From Shigella phage Sf24: 64,000 bases of DNA. The position numbers and the translations under genes were made by a program. Positions 10,879-60,036 of the stretch are shown piece after piece (position 1 is the first letter of the stretch; every line of letters starts with the position of its first letter). The stretch lies in the sequence record MF327008. One strand, 5' to 3'. The notes under the pieces are model-generated. The model was given only the letters and a program-made list of their open reading frames with translations, was not told where the DNA came from and made no database searches.

Positions 10879-12305
10879 TAAAATTTTAATTCATTTGCCA
10901 AAGCATCTAACTGAGCTCGAGTAGATTCATTTCTTTGATAGCGATTCTGCTCAGCCTGAATCTGTTGTGAACCTGCTACTTCGTTCACTTCAGTTGGAGT
11001 AGAATCTTGTTCAATTTCTACCCATTTCTGATTTCCTTTTTGAACACCCATCAAAAACTTATTCCATTTATTCTTATCGCCATATCGTGATTTGATTTGC
11101 TTAATGAGTTGTTGTTCAGCAGCTGCTAGCTCCTCGGTTTCAATGACCGCAAGCATAAAATCAGCTGTTGCTGGAAGACCAGCAGATTCTGCAATATCGC
11201 TCATGTTAACATCGGAAGAGTCCCAAGCTTGTTTACCAACCTGCGCTGCGGTCCAAAGAACAGTTTCGGTTTCAACAGCAAGAGCACGCAATTCCTCTGC
11301 AATAGCTTTAACAGTTGTGTAACTATTTTCTGAATAAACTCTAATGCGGCAAGATTTACAAATACCTAGATAGTCGACAATAATGATTGTTGGAACAAAA
11401 TTCTTCTTGAGCTTCAATTCATTCAAGAGAGACCTGAATGTATTAGCGTCTGCTCCACCAGTAGGATATTGCTTAACGATTAAACGACCGAGAGTAGATT
11501 TCTCACGCCATTTTTCCATTTTTCCTTTATATTCGGCGTAAGAAATATGTCCATCATCAATATCGTCAAGAGAAACATCGAGCATGTTAGCATCAATACG
11601 TTTAGCACAGACTTCTTCTGCCATTTCCATGGAGATATAAAGAACGTTATGACCAAGCTGCAAATAATCTGCTGCTAATGAGCAAAGTCCTAATGATTTA
11701 CCAACGTTAACGCCAGCCATTAAAACGTTCAGTGTTCCTGTTTCAGCTCCGCCTTTTGTAATTTTATTCAAAATACGAAGTTTAAATGGAACCTTACGAG
11801 CTTTATTCATATAAGATAGCCAGCGTGCTTCGTAGTCATCCATCCAATCATGACCAACGTAGCTATCAAATGAAATTGATAATGCTTGGCGCATGATGTC
11901 AGGAATAGCACCTACATCTGGCATTTTCTTATTTCGTTTTTCCGGAGGAAGCTCAGCATTAGTTTGAATTTCGATTATTTTAGACGTAGCATTAAACATC
12001 GCCCTTTGCTGAACATATTTTTCTGTTTCTTTTACTAACCAACTATGGTCTTCCGGAGAATCAGCTAGTTTTGAAATAAGTGTTTTTACACCAGAATATT
12101 CTGTTTCAGTAAATGAACTATTTTCTAATGCAACATTTAACGCATTAATAGATGGAACGCTATGATACTCATTAACATGAGATTTAATTAATTTGAATGT
12201 ATTTTTAGCTGGACCACTTTCAAAATATTCTGAATCCATATATGGCCAAACTTTTGAAAAATAAGCTTGATCAAATATGAGATGAGAAAGAATAATTTCT
12301 ACCAC
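10878..12305 (-). CDS. 41: replicative DNA helicase (gene 41)
   Basis: 475 aa; DnaB-like Walker A GVNVGKS. Confidence 0.95.
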   Translation of the reverse strand: MVEIILSHLIFDQAYFSKVWPYMDSEYFESGPAKNTFKLIKSHVNEYHSVPSINALNVALENSSFTETEYSGVKTLISKLADSPEDHSWLVKETEKYVQQRAMFNATSKIIEIQTNAELPPEKRNKKMPDVGAIPDIMRQALSISFDSYVGHDWMDDYEARWLSYMNKARKVPFKLRILNKITKGGAETGTLNVLMAGVNVGKSLGLCSLAADYLQLGHNVLYISMEMAEEVCAKRIDANMLDVSLDDIDDGHISYAEYKGKMEKWREKSTLGRLIVKQYPTGGADANTFRSLLNELKLKKNFVPTIIIVDYLGICKSCRIRVYSENSYTTVKAIAEELRALAVETETVLWTAAQVGKQAWDSSDVNMSDIAESAGLPATADFMLAVIETEELAAAEQQLIKQIKSRYGDKNKWNKFLMGVQKGNQKWVEIEQDSTPTEVNEVAGSQQIQAEQNRYQRNESTRAQLDALANELKF

Positions 12306-31624: not shown

Positions 31625-32095
31625 TTAATCATGTTTCCACACCCCATCGGTATTTGACCAAAGTCGCTGATTATCTGATCCTCGCCACAGCTTTTTGGTC
31701 GGAAGATTTTTCTCATACTTCCCATCAATAATAACATCAACATATTTAAGCATTTCTAGTTGTTTAATATCTTCAAATTTATATCCTGTCCACAACCAAA
31801 TGCTTTTATTGGGATAAAGATTTTTTACTGTTTGAACAATGCAATGAACAACATCTCGGTTATCAGGATAGAGAGGGTCTCCTCCAGTTATAGTTAATCC
31901 TTCTATATAATCATTATTCAAACATTCAATTAATTGCTCTAGTGTTTCACCAGTGAATGGAACACCGTTTCTAGCGTTCCATGTTGATTTATTATAACAC
32001 CCTTCGCATTTATGCAAACAACCTGTAACGAAAAGAACGACCCTGCAACCAGGGCCATTCACAAAATCACAAGGATAAAATCTATCATAATTCAT
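31625..32095 (-). CDS. nrdG: anaerobic ribonucleotide reductase activase NrdG
   Basis: 156 aa; radical-SAM cysteine cluster CLHKCEGC. Confidence 0.9.
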   Translation of the reverse strand: MNYDRFYPCDFVNGPGCRVVLFVTGCLHKCEGCYNKSTWNARNGVPFTGETLEQLIECLNNDYIEGLTITGGDPLYPDNRDVVHCIVQTVKNLYPNKSIWLWTGYKFEDIKQLEMLKYVDVIIDGKYEKNLPTKKLWRGSDNQRLWSNTDGVWKHD

Positions 32096-33909
32096 TGATG
32101 CTTAACCCTATGCATGATTTCTTTATTTTTACCGAGATTAAATCCGCGCTCGTTAGGATTTCCCAAATAACCGCATGTTCTTCTTATAGTATTCATCTTT
32201 TTGGGATCAGTTTCTCCACAAATAGAACAAACAAATCCGTTTTCAGTAGGAGTCATTTCATGAGTGCTTCCACACGTAAAACATTTATCTACTGGCATGT
32301 TAACACCAAAATAATCTAAATGTTGTGCAGCATAATCCCATACAGCCTCAAGACCTTTTAGGTTATTTTTCATATCAGGAAGTTCAACATAAGAAATGTG
32401 ACCACCTGTCGCAATGAAATGATATGGTGCTTCACGAGAAATCTTTTCAAACGGAGTGATATTTTCTTCTACTGAAACATGGAAACTATTAGTGTACCAA
32501 CCTTTATCAGTAACATCTTTTACGCTTCCATATTTTTCAGTATCAAGTTTACAGAAGCGATAGCAAAGGTTTTCAGCAGGAGTAGAATACAAGCTAAAAG
32601 CAAAACCGGTTCTTTCGGTCCACTGCTTAAGACGAGCATTCATTTTAGTTAAAATTTCCTGTCCAATATCACGACCGACAAGAATATTCAATTCGTGAAT
32701 ACCAATGTATCCTAAGGACACTGAACTTCTACCGTTTTTAAATAACTCAATTATATCGTCATCAGGTTTAAGACGAACCCCGAATGCACCTTCTTGGTAA
32801 AGAATAGGAGCAACAGTAGCTTTAACTCCTTTTAAGGAACTAATTCTACACATCAATGCTTCAAAACATAAATCCATTCTCTCATTGAACAATTCGGCAA
32901 ATTTCTGTTCATTGAACTGTGTTCCAATATAAGAATCTAGCGCAATGCGAGGAAGATTCAGTGTTACAACACCAAGATTATTACGTCCATCAAGAATTTC
33001 ATTACCAGTCGAATCTTTCCATACGCTCAAGAAACTACGGCATCCCATCGGAGAAACAGGAACAGATGAACCAGTGATAGCTTTATTGTTCTTAGCTGAA
33101 ATAATATCAGGATACATCCTTTTGCTTGCACACTCTAGAGCAAGCTTCTTAATATCATAGTTCGGATCATCTTTATAAAGATTAACACCTTCTTCGACGA
33201 ACATAACAAGCTTAGGGAAAATAGGAGTTATCCCATCACGACCAAGACCTTTAATACGATTTTTCAGAATTGCTTTCTGAATCATTCGTTCAGTCCAGTC
33301 AGTTCCCGTACCAAATGTAATTGTTACAAAAGGCGTTTGTCCGTTTGAACTAAAGAGAGTATTTACTTCATATTCATAAGCTTGGAATGCATCGTATACG
33401 TCTTTTTCTGTTTTAGATTGAGCATAATTTAACGCATCAGCGATTTGCCATTTTTCTGCATCCTCAATATGTTTTGCATAGGTGCGTTTAACATAAGGAG
33501 AAAGTACTTTATCTACATTCGCAAAAGTCGTTCCGCCATATTGATGGGAAGCAACTTGCGCAGTAATTTGTGCCATAATTGCAGTAGCAACACCGATTGA
33601 TTTAGGAGTTTCAATCTGCGCATTACCAAGCTTAAATCCGTTCTCAAGCATTCCTTTTAAATCTACTAAACAACAATTAGTAAATGGAAGAGCAGGGGAA
33701 TAATCAATATCATGGAAATGAATAATTCCGCTTTCATGCGCTTTCATAATAAAAGACGGGACCATATTTTTGGCAATGTGTTTAGACACAATACCAGCCA
33801 TAAGGTCCCGTTGAGTTGGAAAAACACGAGAATCTTTATTAGCATTCTCGTTTAAAAGGTCTTTATTAGTTTTATGAATCAATCCTTCAATTTCTTTTTC
33901 AATTGTCAT
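32092..33909 (-). CDS. nrdD: anaerobic ribonucleotide reductase NrdD, uninterrupted
   Basis: 605 aa continuous ORF; C-terminal glycyl-radical motif RTCGYLG. Confidence 0.95.
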   Translation of the reverse strand: MTIEKEIEGLIHKTNKDLLNENANKDSRVFPTQRDLMAGIVSKHIAKNMVPSFIMKAHESGIIHFHDIDYSPALPFTNCCLVDLKGMLENGFKLGNAQIETPKSIGVATAIMAQITAQVASHQYGGTTFANVDKVLSPYVKRTYAKHIEDAEKWQIADALNYAQSKTEKDVYDAFQAYEYEVNTLFSSNGQTPFVTITFGTGTDWTERMIQKAILKNRIKGLGRDGITPIFPKLVMFVEEGVNLYKDDPNYDIKKLALECASKRMYPDIISAKNNKAITGSSVPVSPMGCRSFLSVWKDSTGNEILDGRNNLGVVTLNLPRIALDSYIGTQFNEQKFAELFNERMDLCFEALMCRISSLKGVKATVAPILYQEGAFGVRLKPDDDIIELFKNGRSSVSLGYIGIHELNILVGRDIGQEILTKMNARLKQWTERTGFAFSLYSTPAENLCYRFCKLDTEKYGSVKDVTDKGWYTNSFHVSVEENITPFEKISREAPYHFIATGGHISYVELPDMKNNLKGLEAVWDYAAQHLDYFGVNMPVDKCFTCGSTHEMTPTENGFVCSICGETDPKKMNTIRRTCGYLGNPNERGFNLGKNKEIMHRVKHQ

Positions 33910-34379
33910 TTTAAACTCTTTCTAAGCTGCTTCTTAAATGAAGCTATTAACTGTGTTTTAGTGTCAGATTCATTATATTCAAATCCTCTTTGAAGCATCT
34001 CGGCCATCATTTCCTCTTTTCCTAAACGAGAAAATTCCTTTGATTTATCTCCAACAAAGTTAGGGTGAATATTATTTTGGGTGTAATCGGATTTTAAATA
34101 AGTAAGTAAATTTTCTAACCATTCAAGATAATCAACGCCTTGTCCCTTTAAGCCAGAACGATTAAATTTGTGCTTCATTTGACCTTCTGTGGCATTGCAG
34201 AGATTACAAAGCAATCCACGTACTTTTCCTGCTTTTGGTCCATTTAATTCATGGTCATGGTCGAGGTGATTAGCTTGAACGTCAGGATTTAGTTCTCGTT
34301 GGCAAATTAAGCATTTACCGTTTTGTGCATCATAAAATTTCTGTTTTTCTTCTTTATATAATTTGCCAGTCAATAACAT
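33906..34379 (-). CDS. 49: endonuclease VII (gene 49)
   Basis: 157 aa; Zn-binding CLIC...CNLC and H-N-H region. Confidence 0.9.
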   Translation of the reverse strand: MLLTGKLYKEEKQKFYDAQNGKCLICQRELNPDVQANHLDHDHELNGPKAGKVRGLLCNLCNATEGQMKHKFNRSGLKGQGVDYLEWLENLLTYLKSDYTQNNIHPNFVGDKSKEFSRLGKEEMMAEMLQRGFEYNESDTKTQLIASFKKQLRKSLK

Positions 34380-34907: not shown

Positions 34908-35030
34908 GTCCCATCTCCATATCAATTAAGTCATTTATTGTTGGTTCATTATATACTGTTTCTTCATCAGTGTAAACCGGTTCTTCCGGCTCTGGCTCTA
35001 CAGTTTCCCATCTAGCCGCCCACCAAGGTT

Positions 35031-35351
35031 TTATAGCGTAATCCATTCTCGTACTGTCTGAGTTACTACACGTTCACGGGGCTCGACTAGTTCAACAGTC
35101 GGAACTGCATAATACCAGTCAGAATGATAAGAACCTGAGCGAGTTTCATTTACGGAAACATGTACATTGTGTTTTGGACTAAAATAAACACACTGACGAT
35201 ATTGGCATTTACCATCTTGCACCCAGTCTTCTATTTCGATAGGTTTAAGATAATCCGAAAAATCGAAATCATAATTTTCTGAAAATGCATCATGGTCTTC
35301 GATGATTTCACTCAGAACTGCATCAACATCTAATTTATTTTCAATATTCAT
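35031..35351 (-). CDS. hypothetical protein (106 aa)
   Basis: Track ORF. Confidence 0.5.
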   Translation of the reverse strand: MNIENKLDVDAVLSEIIEDHDAFSENYDFDFSDYLKPIEIEDWVQDGKCQYRQCVYFSPKHNVHVSVNETRSGSYHSDWYYAVPTVELVEPRERVVTQTVREWITL

Positions 35352-50987: not shown

Positions 50988-51014
50988 GTTATTCTCCTCT
51001 TAACTGATAGAAAA

Positions 51015-51044
51015 ATTATACCACAGTCAAGAGGAAAAGTAAAC
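51015..51044 (-). promoter_or_regulatory. early promoter upstream of regB
   Basis: GTTTAC-N18-TATAAT. Confidence 0.7.
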
Positions 51045-51046
51045 AA

Positions 51047-51367
51047 TTATTCTTTAAATCTAATCAATTTATTCATAGACTTTGAAACTTCTGCACGAAC
51101 CTCATGCAAGTTTTTAAGCTGTTCAAGACGCTGTTCATAGTAAGCAATTTCATCTTCTTCGAGACAGTCCTGTGAATCTTCTTTAAGATAACGTGCATAG
51201 TCCTGGAAAGCTTTACGGACTACTTCCTGGAAGTCATCAAGACTTTGAATTTTCTTAGGAGCAACAGATACACGACGAGGGGCAGTATAATACTCATAAC
51301 CAAACCCTGCACTTAATTGAGCCATTAGTATTTTTCCTCTGGTTGGAACACTGCACGACAAGCCCAC
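51047..51367 (-). CDS. hypothetical protein (106 aa)
   Basis: Track ORF. Confidence 0.5.
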
Positions 51368-51627
51368 ATACTGGCTTCTTTGAGTTTCGTTTTAGCAATA
51401 GTTAACTGATCGAGGCTTTCAGCATAATTCTTCGCGAGTTCATCATCTTCACAATTATCTAGTGCTTCCCAGAATTCATCGTATAAAGCGTCAAAGATAA
51501 GTCCTAAACGAACTTCAGCGTCTTTAATAGCATTCACTTTACCGATTTTCTCTTCAGTATGCGGCTTATAACCTTTAATGTCTTCAATCATATTTGACTT
51601 CCTCACCAGTACATAAATTATATTCAA
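51325..51627 (-). CDS. hypothetical protein (about 90-100 aa, vs.4 position)
   Basis: Track ORF; start uncertain. Confidence 0.5.
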
Positions 51628-51805
51628 CTAAACGAATAGGTTCATGAATGCCATATCCTTGAACAGAAATTTCTGTTGTAGGATAAATTCCATCAATACC
51701 ACCCATATTCCATGCTTCATTAAATTGCTGTTCGCCTGAATTACTAAACCACTCGGCGAAAGCATTTAACACATCTTTAGAACCTTCAATAATTATCTTT
51801 GCCAT
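51584..51805 (-). CDS. hypothetical protein (73 aa)
   Basis: Track ORF. Confidence 0.45.
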   Translation of the reverse strand: MAKIIIEGSKDVLNAFAEWFSNSGEQQFNEAWNMGGIDGIYPTTEISVQGYGIHEPIRLVEYNLCTGEEVKYD

Positions 51806-52167
51806 TACAAACTCTCAGTAAAGGTACGAGCGATAACGTCGCGCTGCTGTTCCGGAGTCAGAGAGTTAAAGCGAACTGCATAACCGGATACACGGATGGT
51901 CAGCTGCGGATATTTTTCCGGATGCTTAACTGCATCTTCCAGAGTTTCACGACGCAGAACGTTAACATTCAGGTGTTGACCACCTTCAATTTTAACCGTA
52001 GGCTGTGGTTCAATTTCAATTTCACGGGCATGCAAACCGTAGAAAATTTCCGGGTCTACAAAAGAGTCCTCTTTAAAGGTTTTAGAGACAATAATTCGTG
52101 CTTGAATACCATCTTCAAAATAAATAGTACCTTTATGCGTGCCTTCAAGAATTTGATATGCTTTCAT
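51805..52167 (-). CDS. autonomous glycyl-radical cofactor, GrcA/YfiD-like
   Basis: C-terminal half ...[40 protein letters not shown]... carries the RVSGYAV glycyl-radical motif; that half is GC-richer than surrounding phage DNA. Confidence 0.85.
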
Positions 52168-52173
52168 ATAACC

Positions 52174-52554
52174 TCAATTAGAAAATAAATTTATCCAAGA
52201 TTGTTCTTTAATTAAAAATGGCTCAGAATCATATGCCATTAAACTTTGGGTGATTAGTCCTTTAAAAGGTCCATCAATAAATTCCATGGTAAAATATGGA
52301 ATTTTATTCATTAATCTTGCATTAGGAGCAGTGCACAAAACTCTGCATCCTTTGAATACGCCTTTTTGTAATTTGTATTGCTTAGGATAAAATTCGCTCA
52401 AGACGTTGTTATTTGCCAAAATTTCAAAATGATTCACCAATTTATTTTTAATAGTTTTTGGCGAAAAATAAAGATATTCGAAAAGTTGCGTGTCTGTCAT
52501 CATTGCATTCCGATTATGAAAAACTGTGGACGAGTAATACCACCAATGCAACAT
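52174..52554 (-). CDS. hypothetical protein (126 aa)
   Basis: Track ORF. Confidence 0.5.
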   Translation of the reverse strand: MLHWWYYSSTVFHNRNAMMTDTQLFEYLYFSPKTIKNKLVNHFEILANNNVLSEFYPKQYKLQKGVFKGCRVLCTAPNARLMNKIPYFTMEFIDGPFKGLITQSLMAYDSEPFLIKEQSWINLFSN

Positions 52555-53003
52555 TTAATATTACAGCAGCAGTGTACAGTGTCAATATGGACACTATAAA
52601 TCTTATCCATATCAGGAGATTTGACAGGCTCGTCAATTATATACAAAATTCGCGAAAGCGATAAACCTCTGAACTTACTTCCTTTATTACCGATAAAACT
52701 ACGGACAGAATCGGTAAATAAACGGAATCGAATATCATCGCTAGAATAACGAGAAAATTCTTTTTTAATGTGGCCTGCAGAAATTTTAGCGTAAGCTGAA
52801 GTATTAGAAAGAACAATAACTGTTCCACCGTCATACAACCAATTAGCGGCAAAATTAGTTACTGCAGTTGATTTACCAGATTGACGTCCACCATCTAGTC
52901 GAAGTGTGCAGTACTGTTTAAGTAATTCTTCAAATGGCGGGATATATTCGTTTTTACAAATTTCTTCTACTCTAGCGTCAGAATGGTGTGTAAAAGCATT
53001 CAT
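52500..53003 (-). CDS. hypothetical P-loop protein (167 aa)
   Basis: Walker A GGRQSGKST, Walker B-like ILYIIDEP; 3' end overlaps next ORF. Confidence 0.5.
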   Translation of the reverse strand: MNAFTHHSDARVEEICKNEYIPPFEELLKQYCTLRLDGGRQSGKSTAVTNFAANWLYDGGTVIVLSNTSAYAKISAGHIKKEFSRYSSDDIRFRLFTDSVRSFIGNKGSKFRGLSLSRILYIIDEPVKSPDMDKIYSVHIDTVHCCCNIKCCIGGITRPQFFIIGMQ

Positions 53004-53191
53004 CAGGATAGATAAGGACCAGTTAAAAATGTTCTCATTTTATTCTCTCTAAATTTGGGCCATTCCGTGGCGCATGAATTGTCCATTTCTGTATTTACCC
53101 ATTACCGCACTCAGGCTCGACCTTATTACAGGTTGGCGGGAATCCCTCATAGAATCATGAGGTCCAGGTTGTTCCCATATTTCTTATTTGC

Positions 53192-53665
53192 TTATTTGAA
53201 TGATTTGACGTACTGAATAGAGCCTTTGCTATTCACGAAAGCGATTTTACCATTTTTGTTATACATGGTAGCAGTACGCTGATAGCCATAAGTTTGCTTA
53301 CCAGATTGATAACCAACTAATGCAAAATTATCTTCACCCATTTTATTCTGTTTGGCGCGGATACGTTCATGACCGTGCGCCATAAGAACCTTAGCATCGC
53401 CAGTTGAAATTGATCTACGAGTTTTTTCATCTTCAACTGTATTAACAAAGTCGTCAAATGAATCAAATTTAGCGTGAGATTTATTATACAGTTTTCCATC
53501 TACTGCATAATTATATCCCTGTACATCCATCTCAACTTCTGTACCATCATCCAATACAGCAGTGATTTTTTGACCTTTTTTAAATTTCAAAAGATCAGTA
53601 AAAGATTCAGCAATAATTTGAGAATTAATAGCTGCTTCAGTGATAAATTCTTGATATGTTTTCAT
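53192..53665 (-). CDS. internal (injected) head protein with capsid targeting sequence
   Basis: N-terminus MKTYQEFITEA matches the CTS of T4 internal proteins as recalled. Confidence 0.75.
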   Translation of the reverse strand: MKTYQEFITEAAINSQIIAESFTDLLKFKKGQKITAVLDDGTEVEMDVQGYNYAVDGKLYNKSHAKFDSFDDFVNTVEDEKTRRSISTGDAKVLMAHGHERIRAKQNKMGEDNFALVGYQSGKQTYGYQRTATMYNKNGKIAFVNSKGSIQYVKSFK

Positions 53666-53674
53666 ATGTTTCCT

Positions 53675-54091
53675 TTAAATGTAAATATTTTTACCGTAAT
53701 ACTTATACCAGTGTGGTTTCATTAAAATTTTTTCATCAAGTCGTTGTTGACTCAATTTAATAGCTGATTTGCATGGATTATAATCATTTTTCCATTCTAC
53801 TGGAATATCGCTGATGTCAGGAACTTCAGTATCTTTTATACTGAACCCTCGTTTTAAGCATTCCGTTATAATGTCTAATTGACGCTTTCGCAAAAATTCT
53901 AACTTATCGTAAAAGAACGTAACATGACCAGAACCTAAAATAAACTCGGAAGATATTTTAAAATCTTTAACGCGCTTACCGTTTGCCACATGCTTACGAA
54001 CTATACCAAAAACACGCGGCAATTCACGGTATTCTGCGATTAAATGTTGATCAGCAAGTTCAGATACTAAAGTCAAATTAATACGAGTCAT
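53675..54091 (-). CDS. denV: endonuclease V (pyrimidine dimer glycosylase)
   Basis: 138 aa; [17 protein letters not shown]... matches T4 DenV as recalled. Confidence 0.92.
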
Positions 54092-58362: not shown

Positions 58363-58480
58363 TGTTTTGTGAAAAAAATTTTTAAAAAGTTTTGGGGAAT
58401 TCTAGGGCAGGGAGGGGCAATTAAAAGATAGGATAATATATTATAAAGGGTAGAAACTAAATGATGTCTAGAGAGGCCCG

Positions 58481-58507
58481 GAAAGGCCTAGATACCAAAA
58501 AGCCCCA
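58481..58507 (-). terminator. hairpin plus U-run at the distal end of the tRNA / small-RNA transcription unit
   Basis: GCCCCGACC-GAAAGG-UUGGGGC followed by UUUUU. Confidence 0.55.
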
Positions 58508-58573
58508 ACCTTTCGGTCGGGGCTAAGCCTTGCGGCAACCTTGTCGGGGTTCCACCTGCTAAGGCAAGTGTTT

Positions 58574-58667
58574 GTACGAAACGCCGGGATTCGAACCCGG
58601 TTATCAAGCAGTTGACGCTACTCAATATTTTTAAAAGGCCATATCTCGACCATATCCGAACGTTCCG
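58574..58667 (-). ncRNA. tRNA-like element / candidate stable small RNA downstream of the tRNA cluster
   Basis: Minus strand carries acceptor-like CGGAACG/CGTTTCG pairing and a perfect T-arm CCGGG-TTCGAAT-CCCGG, but is about 94 nt with no clean anticodon arm; no ORF in 58380-58830. Confidence 0.3.
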
Positions 58668-58835
58668 TCAAAAACGCTACTCGGCTTACGGCAAAGATAT
58701 TTCCTCGAATCGATAATTCGGTGCGCCGTTTCTGCTGTGATATAAGGGGGCATTAACAAAACATAAAGATTTATTAATGCCAGTCCTTAAACAGGGAACA
58801 TCAGTCCGACGACTTACCGGTAGCGACCCGGTTTC

Positions 58836-59204: not shown

Positions 59205-59281
<77 letters not shown>

Positions 59282-59285
59282 TATT

Positions 59286-59360
59286 TGGCGGACATGCATG
59301 GATTCGAACCATGGACCAATTGATTAACAGTCAACTGCTCTACCATTGAGCTACACATCC
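59286..59360 (-). tRNA. tRNA-Asn (anticodon GUU)
   Basis: Hand-folded: anticodon loop CTGTTAA, T-arm CATGG-TTCGAAT-CCATG, CCA encoded. Confidence 0.75.
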
Positions 59361-59364
59361 AAAT

Positions 59365-59451
59365 TGGTGGGGAGTGATGGAGTCGAACCACCCGAGTCGC
59401 AATGACAATGAATTTACAGTCCACACCGCTACCTCTACGGGATAACTCCCC
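59365..59451 (-). tRNA. tRNA-Tyr (anticodon GUA), long variable arm
   Basis: Hand-folded 87 nt: acceptor GGGGAGT/ACTCCCC, anticodon loop CTGTAAA, T-loop TTCGACT, CCA encoded. Confidence 0.75.
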
Positions 59452-59463
59452 TAATTCATAATT

Positions 59464-59538
59464 TGGTGGCCCTGGGTGGAATTGAACCACCATCTGGCGA
59501 TTATGAGTCGCTTGCTTGAACCTTCCAGCTACAGGGCC
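59464..59538 (-). tRNA. tRNA with CAU anticodon (Ile2-type or Met)
   Basis: Hand-folded: acceptor GGCCCTG/CAGGGCC, anticodon loop CTCATAA, T-loop TTCAATT, CCA encoded. Confidence 0.75.
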
Positions 59539-59539
59539 T

Positions 59540-59615
59540 TGGTGCTGATTGACGGAATCGAACCGCCGACCTTCTCATTACAAGTGAGTTGCTCTACCTA
59601 CTGAGCTAAATCAGC
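59540..59615 (-). tRNA. tRNA-Thr (anticodon UGU)
   Basis: Hand-folded: acceptor GCTGATT/AATCAGC, D-arm GCTC..GAGC, anticodon loop CTTGTAA, T-loop TTCGATT. Confidence 0.8.
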
Positions 59616-59620
59616 AAAAC

Positions 59621-59710
59621 TGGCGGAGGCGATAGGATTTGAACCTATGAGTCGCCGGAGCGACTGCCGGTTTTCAAGACCGGTGCATTAAACCACTCTG
59701 CCACGCCTCC
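59621..59710 (-). tRNA. tRNA-Ser (anticodon UGA), long variable arm
   Basis: Hand-folded 90 nt: acceptor GGAGGCG/CGCCTCC, anticodon stem CCGGT/ACCGG with loop CTTGAAA, T-loop TTCAAAT. Confidence 0.8.
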
Positions 59711-59712
59711 AG

Positions 59713-59786
59713 TCTCCATACAAGGATTTGAACCTTGGACCTCCTGATCCCAAATCAGGCGCTCTACCAAACTGAGCTACACGGAG
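59713..59786 (-). tRNA. tRNA-Pro (anticodon UGG)
   Basis: Hand-folded: anticodon stem CCTGA/TCAGG with loop TTTGGGA, T-arm CAAGG-TTCAAAT-CCTTG; CCA not encoded. Confidence 0.8.
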
Positions 59787-59796
59787 TAAATTAAAT

Positions 59797-59870
<74 letters not shown>

Positions 59871-59875
59871 AAATT

Positions 59876-59962
59876 TGGTGCGAGAAGTGGGACTCGAACC
59901 CACAAGGAAATCATTCCGCAGCATTTTAAGTGCTGTGCCTTTACCAATTTGACCATTCTCGC
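59876..59962 (-). tRNA. tRNA-Leu (anticodon UAA), long variable arm
   Basis: Hand-folded 87 nt: acceptor GCGAGAA/TTCTCGC, anticodon stem CAGCA/TGCTG with loop CTTAAAA, T-loop TTCGAGT. Confidence 0.8.
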
Positions 59963-59963
59963 G

Positions 59964-60036
59964 CTGGGAATAAAGGACTCGAACCTTTGCATCCTGGAAT
60001 CAAAATCCAGTGCCTTACCAACTTGGCTAATTCCCA
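59964..60036 (-). tRNA. tRNA-Gln (anticodon UUG)
   Basis: Hand-folded: acceptor TGGGAAT/ATTCCCA, anticodon stem CTGGA/TCCAG with loop TTTTGAT, T-loop TTCGAGT; CCA not encoded. Confidence 0.8.

Follow-up and report, generated by a model that had tools for sequence, protein, structure and literature searches.

How does a virulent phage come to carry, inside one of its own genes, a tract of DNA identical to the chromosome of its host? The question is raised by vs.6, a small gene found in a stretch of 64,000 nucleotides (nt) of Shigella phage Sf24 (sequence record MF327008), which was analysed at its full length and is called here the window. T4, the textbook virulent phage, destroys the DNA of its host, and the common view is that phage and host have practically no sequence in common. 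The window is a T4-type (Tequatrovirus) genome, in which vs.1, regB, vs.5, vs.6, vs.7 and denV are arranged in T4 order. The product of vs.6, denominated Y06I in T4, is similar to E. coli GrcA (also known as YfiD). An earlier note, made from the letters of the DNA, had described the gene as a chimera, resulting from the addition of a recent host-derived patch to a phage gene. The features relevant to this claim, all located on the minus strand, are listed below.

51805..52167, minus strand: vs.6 (Y06I) gene, encoding a phage GrcA-type autonomous glycyl-radical cofactor of 120 amino acids (aa); identified as an open reading frame (ORF) with ATG start and by Pfam
51990..52167, minus strand: 5' segment of phage type, made up of codons 1-59 and one further nt; identical to E. 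coli grcA at 43.8% of nt
51815..51989, minus strand: putative host-derived conversion tract of 175 nt, phage residues 60-118 (GrcA 67-125); 100% identity to an E. coli chromosomal grcA allele
51805..51814, minus strand: phage-type 3' tail, last 10 nt of the gene, marking by alignment the 3' end of the tract
51805-51807, minus strand: TAA stop codon of vs.6, from the sequence
51874..51894, minus strand: RVSGYAV glycyl-radical motif, residues 92-98; from the translation and the alignment to the C-termini of GrcA and pyruvate formate-lyase (PFL)
51883-51885, minus strand: codon of the radical glycine G95, corresponding in alignments to GrcA G102 and PFL G734
52172..52175, minus strand: Shine-Dalgarno sequence GAGG, 4 nt before the vs.6 ATG; read from the sequence

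The explanation favoured here, to which we assign a probability of about 0.88, is that vs.6 is an old T4-like spare part for PFL, and that its radical-domain half has been overwritten by conversion with host grcA, more than once.

A mosaic gene

The ORF found at 51805-52167 has the C-terminus and the RVSGYAV motif quoted in the earlier note. The encoded protein is made of two parts, as had been supposed. Residues 61-120 are identical to residues 68-127 of E. coli GrcA at 60/60 positions, whereas the N-terminal half is divergent, and shares with GrcA 14/39 residues (36%, pairwise E = 1e-5). At the nucleotide level, gene nt 179-353 (window 51815-51989) are identical at 175/175 positions to the chromosomal grcA of E. 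coli strain 382634_2f. Mismatches to E. coli grcA are 100/178 upstream of the tract, where indels are also present, 0/175 within the tract and 3/10 downstream, all in one ORF, as in psbA-type mosaics. The three downstream mismatches are all synonymous, the tail codons being GAG AGT TTG TAA in the phage, GAA AGC CTG TAA in the host. The maximum chi-square breakpoint falls at window 51989 (Fisher p = 5.7e-39), close to the position of about 52000 given in the earlier note.

A set of 5,426 complete E. coli genomes was searched by blastn. Only gene nt 179-363 matched, in every genome at chromosomal grcA and with at least 95% identity; no nucleotide match to the 5' segment was found in these genomes. 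The 175-nt tract is perfectly conserved in a minority of them (at least 10, fewer than about 190, of the 5,426). There is no E. coli homology past the vs.6 stop codon, and a megablast search of the whole 64-kb window against E. coli detected no chromosomal match besides the vs.6 patch. The host segment is therefore internal to the gene, being flanked by a phage-type 5' half and a phage-type 3' tail. A tail reading GAG AGT CTA TAA, the same as or near-identical to that of the window, is common to Mosigvirus and unpatched Slopekvirus alleles. The 5' half, which occurs with some divergence in all T4-like alleles, is probably homologous to the part of grcA for the N-terminal half of the protein, though diverged from it. 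Sharp junctions, perfect identity and phage-type sequences on both sides bear out the idea of a recent host-derived patch on a pre-existing phage gene.

The 5' end of the tract coincides with the start of the conserved EGGQHLN block, and its 3' end is about 10 nt before the stop codon. Both ends fall where the old phage copy ceases to be homologous to the host gene. The position of the 3' end leaves intact the overlap of vs.6 with the next gene, vs.5. A different 5' junction seemed to occur in some Mosigviruses, where the match to grcA begins at nt 155-162. This results from BLAST extension through weakly similar sequence, and alignment places the junction at the same site.

The guanine plus cytosine (GC) content of the gene rises, as the earlier note had observed, from 0.360 in the 5' part to 0.486 in the patch, the window mean being 0.344 (standard deviation 0.044). 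Only 0.78% of all 175-nt windows in the 64 kb reach the GC content of the patch. At third codon positions GC increases from 0.25 to 0.41 between the 5' part and the patch. Neither a uniformly low identity to host grcA nor a flat base composition, either of which would have spoken against a patch, is thus observed. When the GC contents of the two halves of vs.6 are compared directly by a Fisher test, the outcome is only p = 0.018, so that nucleotide identity, and not the GC shift, is the decisive evidence.

The donor of the tract

Divergence between hosts and phages was counted over a C-terminal block of 183 nt. In the block the window differs from E. coli at 3 sites, from another Escherichia species at 6 and from Citrobacter at 17. 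Comparison of host to host gives 14 differences for E. coli and Citrobacter, 22 for E. coli and K. pneumoniae, 28 for E. coli and Salmonella. These counts indicate E. coli itself as the donor of the window patch, because the next closest candidate, the other Escherichia species, differs at 6 sites rather than 3. The genes pflB and tdcE were also considered as donors, and discarded, being only about 77-84% identical. At an identity of 95% or higher, the patch occurs in no fewer than 494 phage genomes, T4 and T2 included.

Related phages

All Tequatrovirus and Mosigvirus alleles carry the E. coli-type tract. The window differs from Mosigvirus at 17-22/178 sites in the 5' part and at 1-3/175 sites in the 3' part, and the synonymous divergence (dS) is 0.43 and 0.02-0.07, respectively. 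At site 21 of the block the window and phage PP01 have AAT, a rare E. coli allele; T4, T2 and Mosigvirus have AAC, the common one. Among the 15 third codon positions that vary, six are also polymorphic in E. coli (p = 0.008; with phage Nami removed, p = 0.07), and the vs.6 tails form six haplotypes at four sites, in violation of the four-gamete test. The patch of Escherichia phage Nami (allele L096, found also in EcNP1 and Killian) has 14 differences from E. coli, two of which are non-synonymous, and the Nami/EcNP1 patch is at best 94.5% identical to any of the 5,426 E. coli genomes. Several of the sites at which Nami differs are polymorphic in Escherichia; the donor may have been a different species of this genus, or the patch could be an older one. 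An E. coli donor was sought also for the haplotype 12G/21C/39C of allele L106, and rejected, as any E. coli genome differs from it by at least 2 sites.

Phages of Klebsiella carry a different tract. In Jiaodavirus the 3' half of the gene has a GC content of 0.56, and is about 95% identical to K. pneumoniae grcA, about 87% to that of E. coli. The position of the 5' junction, to the codon, is that of the window, and the encoded peptide includes the Klebsiella-specific residues LLDAVEH. The dS between window and Jiaodavirus is 1.23 in the 5' and 0.69 in the 3' part, the latter to be compared with 0.64 between the hosts E. coli and K. pneumoniae. Tracts of E. coli type in Tequatrovirus and Mosigvirus, and of Klebsiella type in Jiaodavirus, are what is expected of independent events in psbA-type mosaics. 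Jiaodaviruses differ from each other at 1-4 sites in the 5' half and at 5-9 sites in the 3' half (dS 0-0.08 and 0.18-0.24, respectively); the 3' half is the more variable, the reverse of the usual pattern. Phage Kp17-11 shares a perfect run of 164 nt with a metagenomic Klebsiella-type grcA (L186), and one of 56 nt with K. pneumoniae strain 176. In its sister phage 15882-3-4 the situation is reversed, the perfect run being 131 nt with strain 176 and 56 nt with the metagenomic allele. The 5' halves of the two phages differ at 1/178 nt. A 96-nt haplotype of the Kp17-11 patch was searched in metagenomes, and found in one contig, which is bacterial, has ung-grcA-srmB synteny and carries a full-length Klebsiella-type grcA. 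LilPanda, a phage isolated on K. aerogenes, has two K. aerogenes-specific single-nucleotide polymorphisms (SNPs). As sister Jiaodaviruses carry runs of two different Klebsiella grcA alleles, host to phage gene conversion has been repeated. Haplotypes argue for at least two separate conversions into near-identical Jiaodavirus backbones, besides the E. coli-type event or events.

Part of the Klebsiella grcA sequences came from a plasmid collection that includes mislabelled chromosomes and fragments (CP125156.1; a 5.37-Mb K. pneumoniae 'plasmid' is an example). The grcA of K. aerogenes NCTC10006 (L098, LR134122.1) features a one-base homopolymer frameshift, probably a sequencing error.

An oral/human-associated metagenome phage (L126, IMG/VR 3300008607_000007) hosts a grcA-like ORF with an N-terminal half of its own (MQKLKAIQIIDDF...). 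This ORF shares a perfect run of 53 nt with Haemophilus parainfluenzae grcA (L062), and the run is missing in the sister allele L124. It may be a third, shorter case of host patch, in an unrelated phage lineage. A putative Yersinia-type patch (L134) was dismissed: the contig bears a viral label, but its grcA is full-length and bacterial.

Unpatched alleles are found in Karamvirus CC31, Slopekvirus, Pseudotevenvirus, Krischvirus, T4-like phages of Aeromonas and T5-like phages. In the 3' half their identity with whichever host grcA is compared is 74-84%, and no exact run exceeds 29 nt. The GC step is small or absent, and the radical domain has amino acid variants of its own. Patched phages are identical to their host at its two variable residues; unpatched ones keep their own variants. 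In the unpatched T4-like relatives the vs.6 locus and the gene order are conserved. Unpatched alleles probably represent the state before conversion, and the patch replaced a homologous segment, because the unpatched relatives encode the same domain at about 20% nucleotide divergence. This modifies one claim of the earlier note, that the patch had given the phage a spare radical domain. The host patch stands, but the domain is already encoded by relatives that lack it.

T5-like phages have a grcA-like gene of 122 aa of their own, located near tRNA genes, such as that at 320-688 in Salmonella phage Kenya-K44 (L087, Tequintavirus) and those of L147-L173. Its N-terminal half is different, its 3' half is unpatched and about 75% identical to hosts. 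In databases the gene is variously annotated as pyruvate formate-lyase, 2-ketobutyrate formate-lyase, acetyltransferase and ribonucleotide reductase subunit.

Gene organization and function of the product

The gene is the orthologue of T4 vs.6, being located in the regB-denV early-gene block with vs.7 and vs.5 as neighbours. The two genes are 97.5% identical (9 differences in 363 nt), and the two proteins differ at one residue (R73H in T4). The closest allele in databases is that of phage PP01 (99.4% identity). The Shine-Dalgarno sequence of vs.6 overlaps the TGA stop codon of the upstream vs.7 ORF (52174-52554), and the vs.6 stop codon overlaps the vs.5 start codon in the sequence TAATG, the vs.5 ATG being at 51803-51805. 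Given the first of these overlaps, vs.7 and vs.6 are tightly packed, and probably co-transcribed. A scan of the interval 51000-53700 for promoters and terminators gave counts not above those expected from shuffled sequences. The vs.5 ORF (window 51584-51805, minus strand) encodes 73 aa here and in T2, and the annotated products of T4 and PP01 have 58 and 45 aa, respectively; its length or start annotation varies among close relatives.

The protein matches the Pfam Gly_radical domain at aa 61-101 (profile positions 66-106 of 106, E = 2.8e-18), YfiD in the PDB entry 6OWR (E = 8.6e-42) and PFL chains at PFL residues 697-759 (E = 5e-26). It has the RVSGY motif of the PFL domain, and is a small stand-alone glycyl-radical-domain protein as is GrcA/YfiD (about 14 kDa). 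TIGR04365, the NCBIfam equivalog model of GrcA, was taken with IPR011140 as the reference of the family. On this model vs.6 scores 153.3 bits, below the cut-off of 170, and E. coli GrcA 233.9. The shortfall is due to the divergence of the N-terminal half, which matched no NCBIfam model when searched alone. The vs.6 protein is a member of a divergent phage subfamily, and would work like GrcA.

In YfiD/GrcA residues 1-60 are disordered, yet both the binding of cleaved PFL and an efficient installation of the radical require them; residues 61-127, which carry the radical glycine, fold like PFL residues 693-759 (PMC8683613). By alignment, the patch corresponds essentially to the structured radical module, and the phage-type half would correspond to the disordered recognition region. 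T4 Y06I and YfiD are, in the account that PMC8683613 gives of Wagner et al. 2001, the two spare parts for O2-cleaved PFL that have been validated by experiment. The rescue of O2-damaged PFL, postulated in the earlier note, has thus a basis in published biochemistry, which according to the same source (PMC8683613) concerns T4 Y06I, a protein one residue apart from that of the window. The note had also envisaged a rescue of NrdD, for which no support was found. The phage has two glycyl-radical proteins, and NrdD has a motif, RTCGYLG, different from the RVSGYAV of vs.6.

32092-33921, minus strand: NrdD, class III ribonucleotide reductase, 609 aa, motif RTCGYLG; identified by ORF and motif

Class III reductases use formate, a product of PFL, as reductant. 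The supply of formate to NrdD suggests itself as a reason for the phage to protect PFL. Activated by the host PFL activase, the vs.6 protein would replace the C-terminal glycyl-radical domain of O2-cleaved PFL, and the enzyme would stay active in infected cells under microaerobic conditions. Acetyl-CoA, ATP and formate might thereby continue to be supplied, and formate could serve as the reductant for the phage NrdD.

Origin of the tract

T4 fragments host DNA and replicates by recombination. The observed mosaic, with its junctions, its donor species and its multiple events, was probably produced as follows. Long resident in T4-like genomes, vs.6 would have been overwritten at 51815-51989 via homologous recombination with E. 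coli grcA. Host DNA fragments present during infection are the likely substrate, the recombination machinery of the phage itself the likely agent. The ancestral 3' half, about 80% identical to grcA and featuring exact runs of 20-29 nt, would allow rare homeologous conversion. Once patched, a phage has about 175 nt of perfect homology to its host, which should make later conversions easier and much more frequent. The homology requirement of T4 marker rescue, reportedly described by Singer et al. in 1982, and the T4 insertion/substitution system, said to have been developed by Selick, Kreuzer and Alberts in 1988, are relevant in this respect.

The process may be pushed further, and vs.6 of virulent T-even phages regarded as a self-reinforcing hotspot of conversion, the radical half of which would be copied over and over from grcA of the host at hand, selection favouring a match to host PFL and its activase; the patch haplotype would then record the recent host species and allele, legible in any phage genome. 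This extension is speculative, and we regard it as rather improbable.

Some points weigh against repeated conversion. The recombination mechanism is inferred from sequence comparison. Conversion is not universal, since many phage lineages (Karamvirus, Slopekvirus, Pseudotevenvirus, Krischvirus, T5-like) lack a recent patch; unpatched domains with several amino acid differences persist, so that an exact match to the host need not carry an adaptive benefit. Within the E. coli phage group the sequences are only suggestive of several separate events. The exact L106 and Nami patch haplotypes were found in none of the 5,426 E. coli genomes, and the low 3' divergence of Tequatrovirus and Mosigvirus could stem from phage-phage recombination after a single host event.

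The last points fit a history in which one host to phage conversion took place per host genus, and the patch then spread from phage to phage, with no ongoing exchange with hosts. T-even phages recombine freely with each other, and the coincidence with E. coli polymorphisms is weak if Nami is set aside. We consider this history unlikely. It does not account for near-identical Jiaodavirus 5' halves joined to 164-nt and 131-nt runs of different Klebsiella alleles, nor for the two K. aerogenes-specific SNPs of LilPanda. The violation of the four-gamete test by the tail haplotypes, and the match of window and PP01 to the rare 21T allele and of T4, T2 and Mosigvirus to the common 21C, are similarly at odds with it.

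A reverse order of events, in which E. coli recently supplied a complete grcA and an older, diverged phage allele later took the place of its 5' half, would yield a similar chimera, and recombination between phages is frequent. However, phage-type sequence is found on both sides of the tract, including the last three codons and the overlap with the vs.5 start, and host sequence does not extend beyond the stop codon. Moreover, none of about 1,500 records is a phage carrying at least 80% of host grcA, and locus and gene order are conserved in unpatched relatives. This order of events is accordingly judged very improbable.

That no transfer occurred, the 3' identity resulting from extreme purifying selection and shared codon preference, is hardly credible. 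The C-terminal peptide of about 60 residues is nearly invariant across hosts and phages, but its DNA is not. Unpatched phages and other enterobacteria encode the same or nearly the same peptide with 14-48 differences per 183 nt; for unpatched alleles against any host the differences are 30-48, and dS is at least 1.4. Unpatched alleles differ from E. coli at 36-43 of the 175 sites of the tract, and protein constraint does not therefore explain identity; at a divergence such as that of CC31, the probability of 0 differences in 175 is 3e-18 at most. Synonymous identity, in addition, tracks the host species, being E. coli-type in E. coli phages and Klebsiella-type in Klebsiella phages.

Identity alone gives no direction, but a transfer in the opposite sense, from the phage into the host, has a negligible probability, and so has a tract created by contamination or by chimeric assembly, since all 5,426 E. 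coli genomes carry the tract inside a full-length grcA located between ung and eamB, the composition is host-like, grcA divergence in Escherichia, Citrobacter, Klebsiella and Salmonella is graded as in vertical descent, no phage with at least 80% of the host gene is known among the records mentioned above, and at least 494 phage genomes, each sequenced independently, contain the patch. As judged from these comparisons, the direction is from host to phage.

Other features of the window

GC-rich spots other than the patch were evaluated as further host patches, and set aside, as no E. coli match was found elsewhere in the 64 kb; one of them is a cluster of tRNA genes.

59205-60036, minus strand: tRNA cluster of 10 genes (Arg, Asn, Tyr, Met/CAU, Thr, Ser, Pro, Gly, Leu, Gln)

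T4 itself has 8 tRNA genes. The region of tRNA-Tyr (59362-59454) has counterparts, 80-90% identical, in about 258 E. coli plasmid records. The GC-rich spots at 11111-11300 and 34967-35144 have no E. coli match, and are not host patches. The interval 58391-58707, where 175-nt windows have a GC content of at least 0.486, adjoins the tRNA cluster and includes stem-loop-like sequences. It has no Rfam match at the gathering threshold and no E. coli match, and may hold the small stable RNAs known from T4.

Comparison with known systems

The gene and its biochemical role were already known, and the new part is recurrent host-templated patching. Comparative genomics of T4 noted only the conservation of vs.6 and its Gly_radical domain (PMC1524935). 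No description of the patch at the nucleotide level, or of its host specificity, was found in the searchable literature, a scope that leaves Wagner et al. 2001 and the T4 genome review outside its reach. A gene of known function of a T4-type phage contains a 175-nt tract identical to the chromosome, and relatives carry the equivalent from their own hosts. Natural recombination from the chromosome to a virulent phage becomes quantifiable, with donors identifiable by allele and junctions set by the limits of homology. The mosaic is at the domain level, a host-identical catalytic module being joined to a phage-specific putative recognition half, and allows testing which half sets compatibility with PFL and its activase (PFL-AE). 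Patch haplotypes may also reveal the recent host of a phage isolate.

There are practical sides. In a typing study of 2026, grcA was chosen as a conserved Straboviridae core gene for the polymerase chain reaction (PCR) and its quantitative form (qPCR) (PMC12845203). Primers for grcA qPCR could amplify E. coli DNA, because the most conserved part of the gene is identical to host grcA. Read-mapping and host-contamination filters could similarly mis-assign the vs.6 tract.

T4 Y06I is the closest known relative. It has the same locus, vs.7-vs.6-vs.5 between regB and denV, and an E. coli-type patch with the same junctions. T4, however, matches the common grcA allele (AAC at site 21), the window the rarer one (AAT), and a tail codon is GAA in T4, GAG in the window. 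With E. coli GrcA/YfiD (6OWR) the window protein has in common the C-terminal 60 residues, 175 nt of DNA, the glycine of RVSGYAV and the structured domain folded as PFL 693-759. In contrast, the N-terminal half of the phage protein has an identity of only about 36% in a stretch of 39 residues, the whole protein is shorter by 7 residues, and the gene lies in a phage operon instead of between ung and eamB. Unpatched vs.6 and T5-like grcA-like genes share the protein architecture, and in T4-like phages also the locus.

As conversion between host and phage in metabolic genes is known, psbA of cyanophages being an example, the vs.6 patch can be assigned to a known phenomenon. Intragenic host-phage recombination was reportedly described for cyanophage psbA and hli by Zeidner et al. 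in 2005 and Sullivan et al. in 2006. In both cases a virulent phage carries a host-derived metabolic gene, in which segments have host-level identity and host-like GC content, and conversion is repeated. Host, phage and enzyme system are different, and the boundaries of the vs.6 tract coincide with a protein domain boundary. In the T-even phages of enterobacteria, moreover, the exchange follows the host genus, and even the host allele. A further parallel, from the laboratory, is T4 marker rescue and plasmid recombination, in which T4 recombination proteins copy into the phage genome, via short homology, homologous cytosine-containing DNA that the infected cell contains. The substrates are engineered there; for vs.6 the donor is natural and chromosomal, and the products have been fixed in wild phages.

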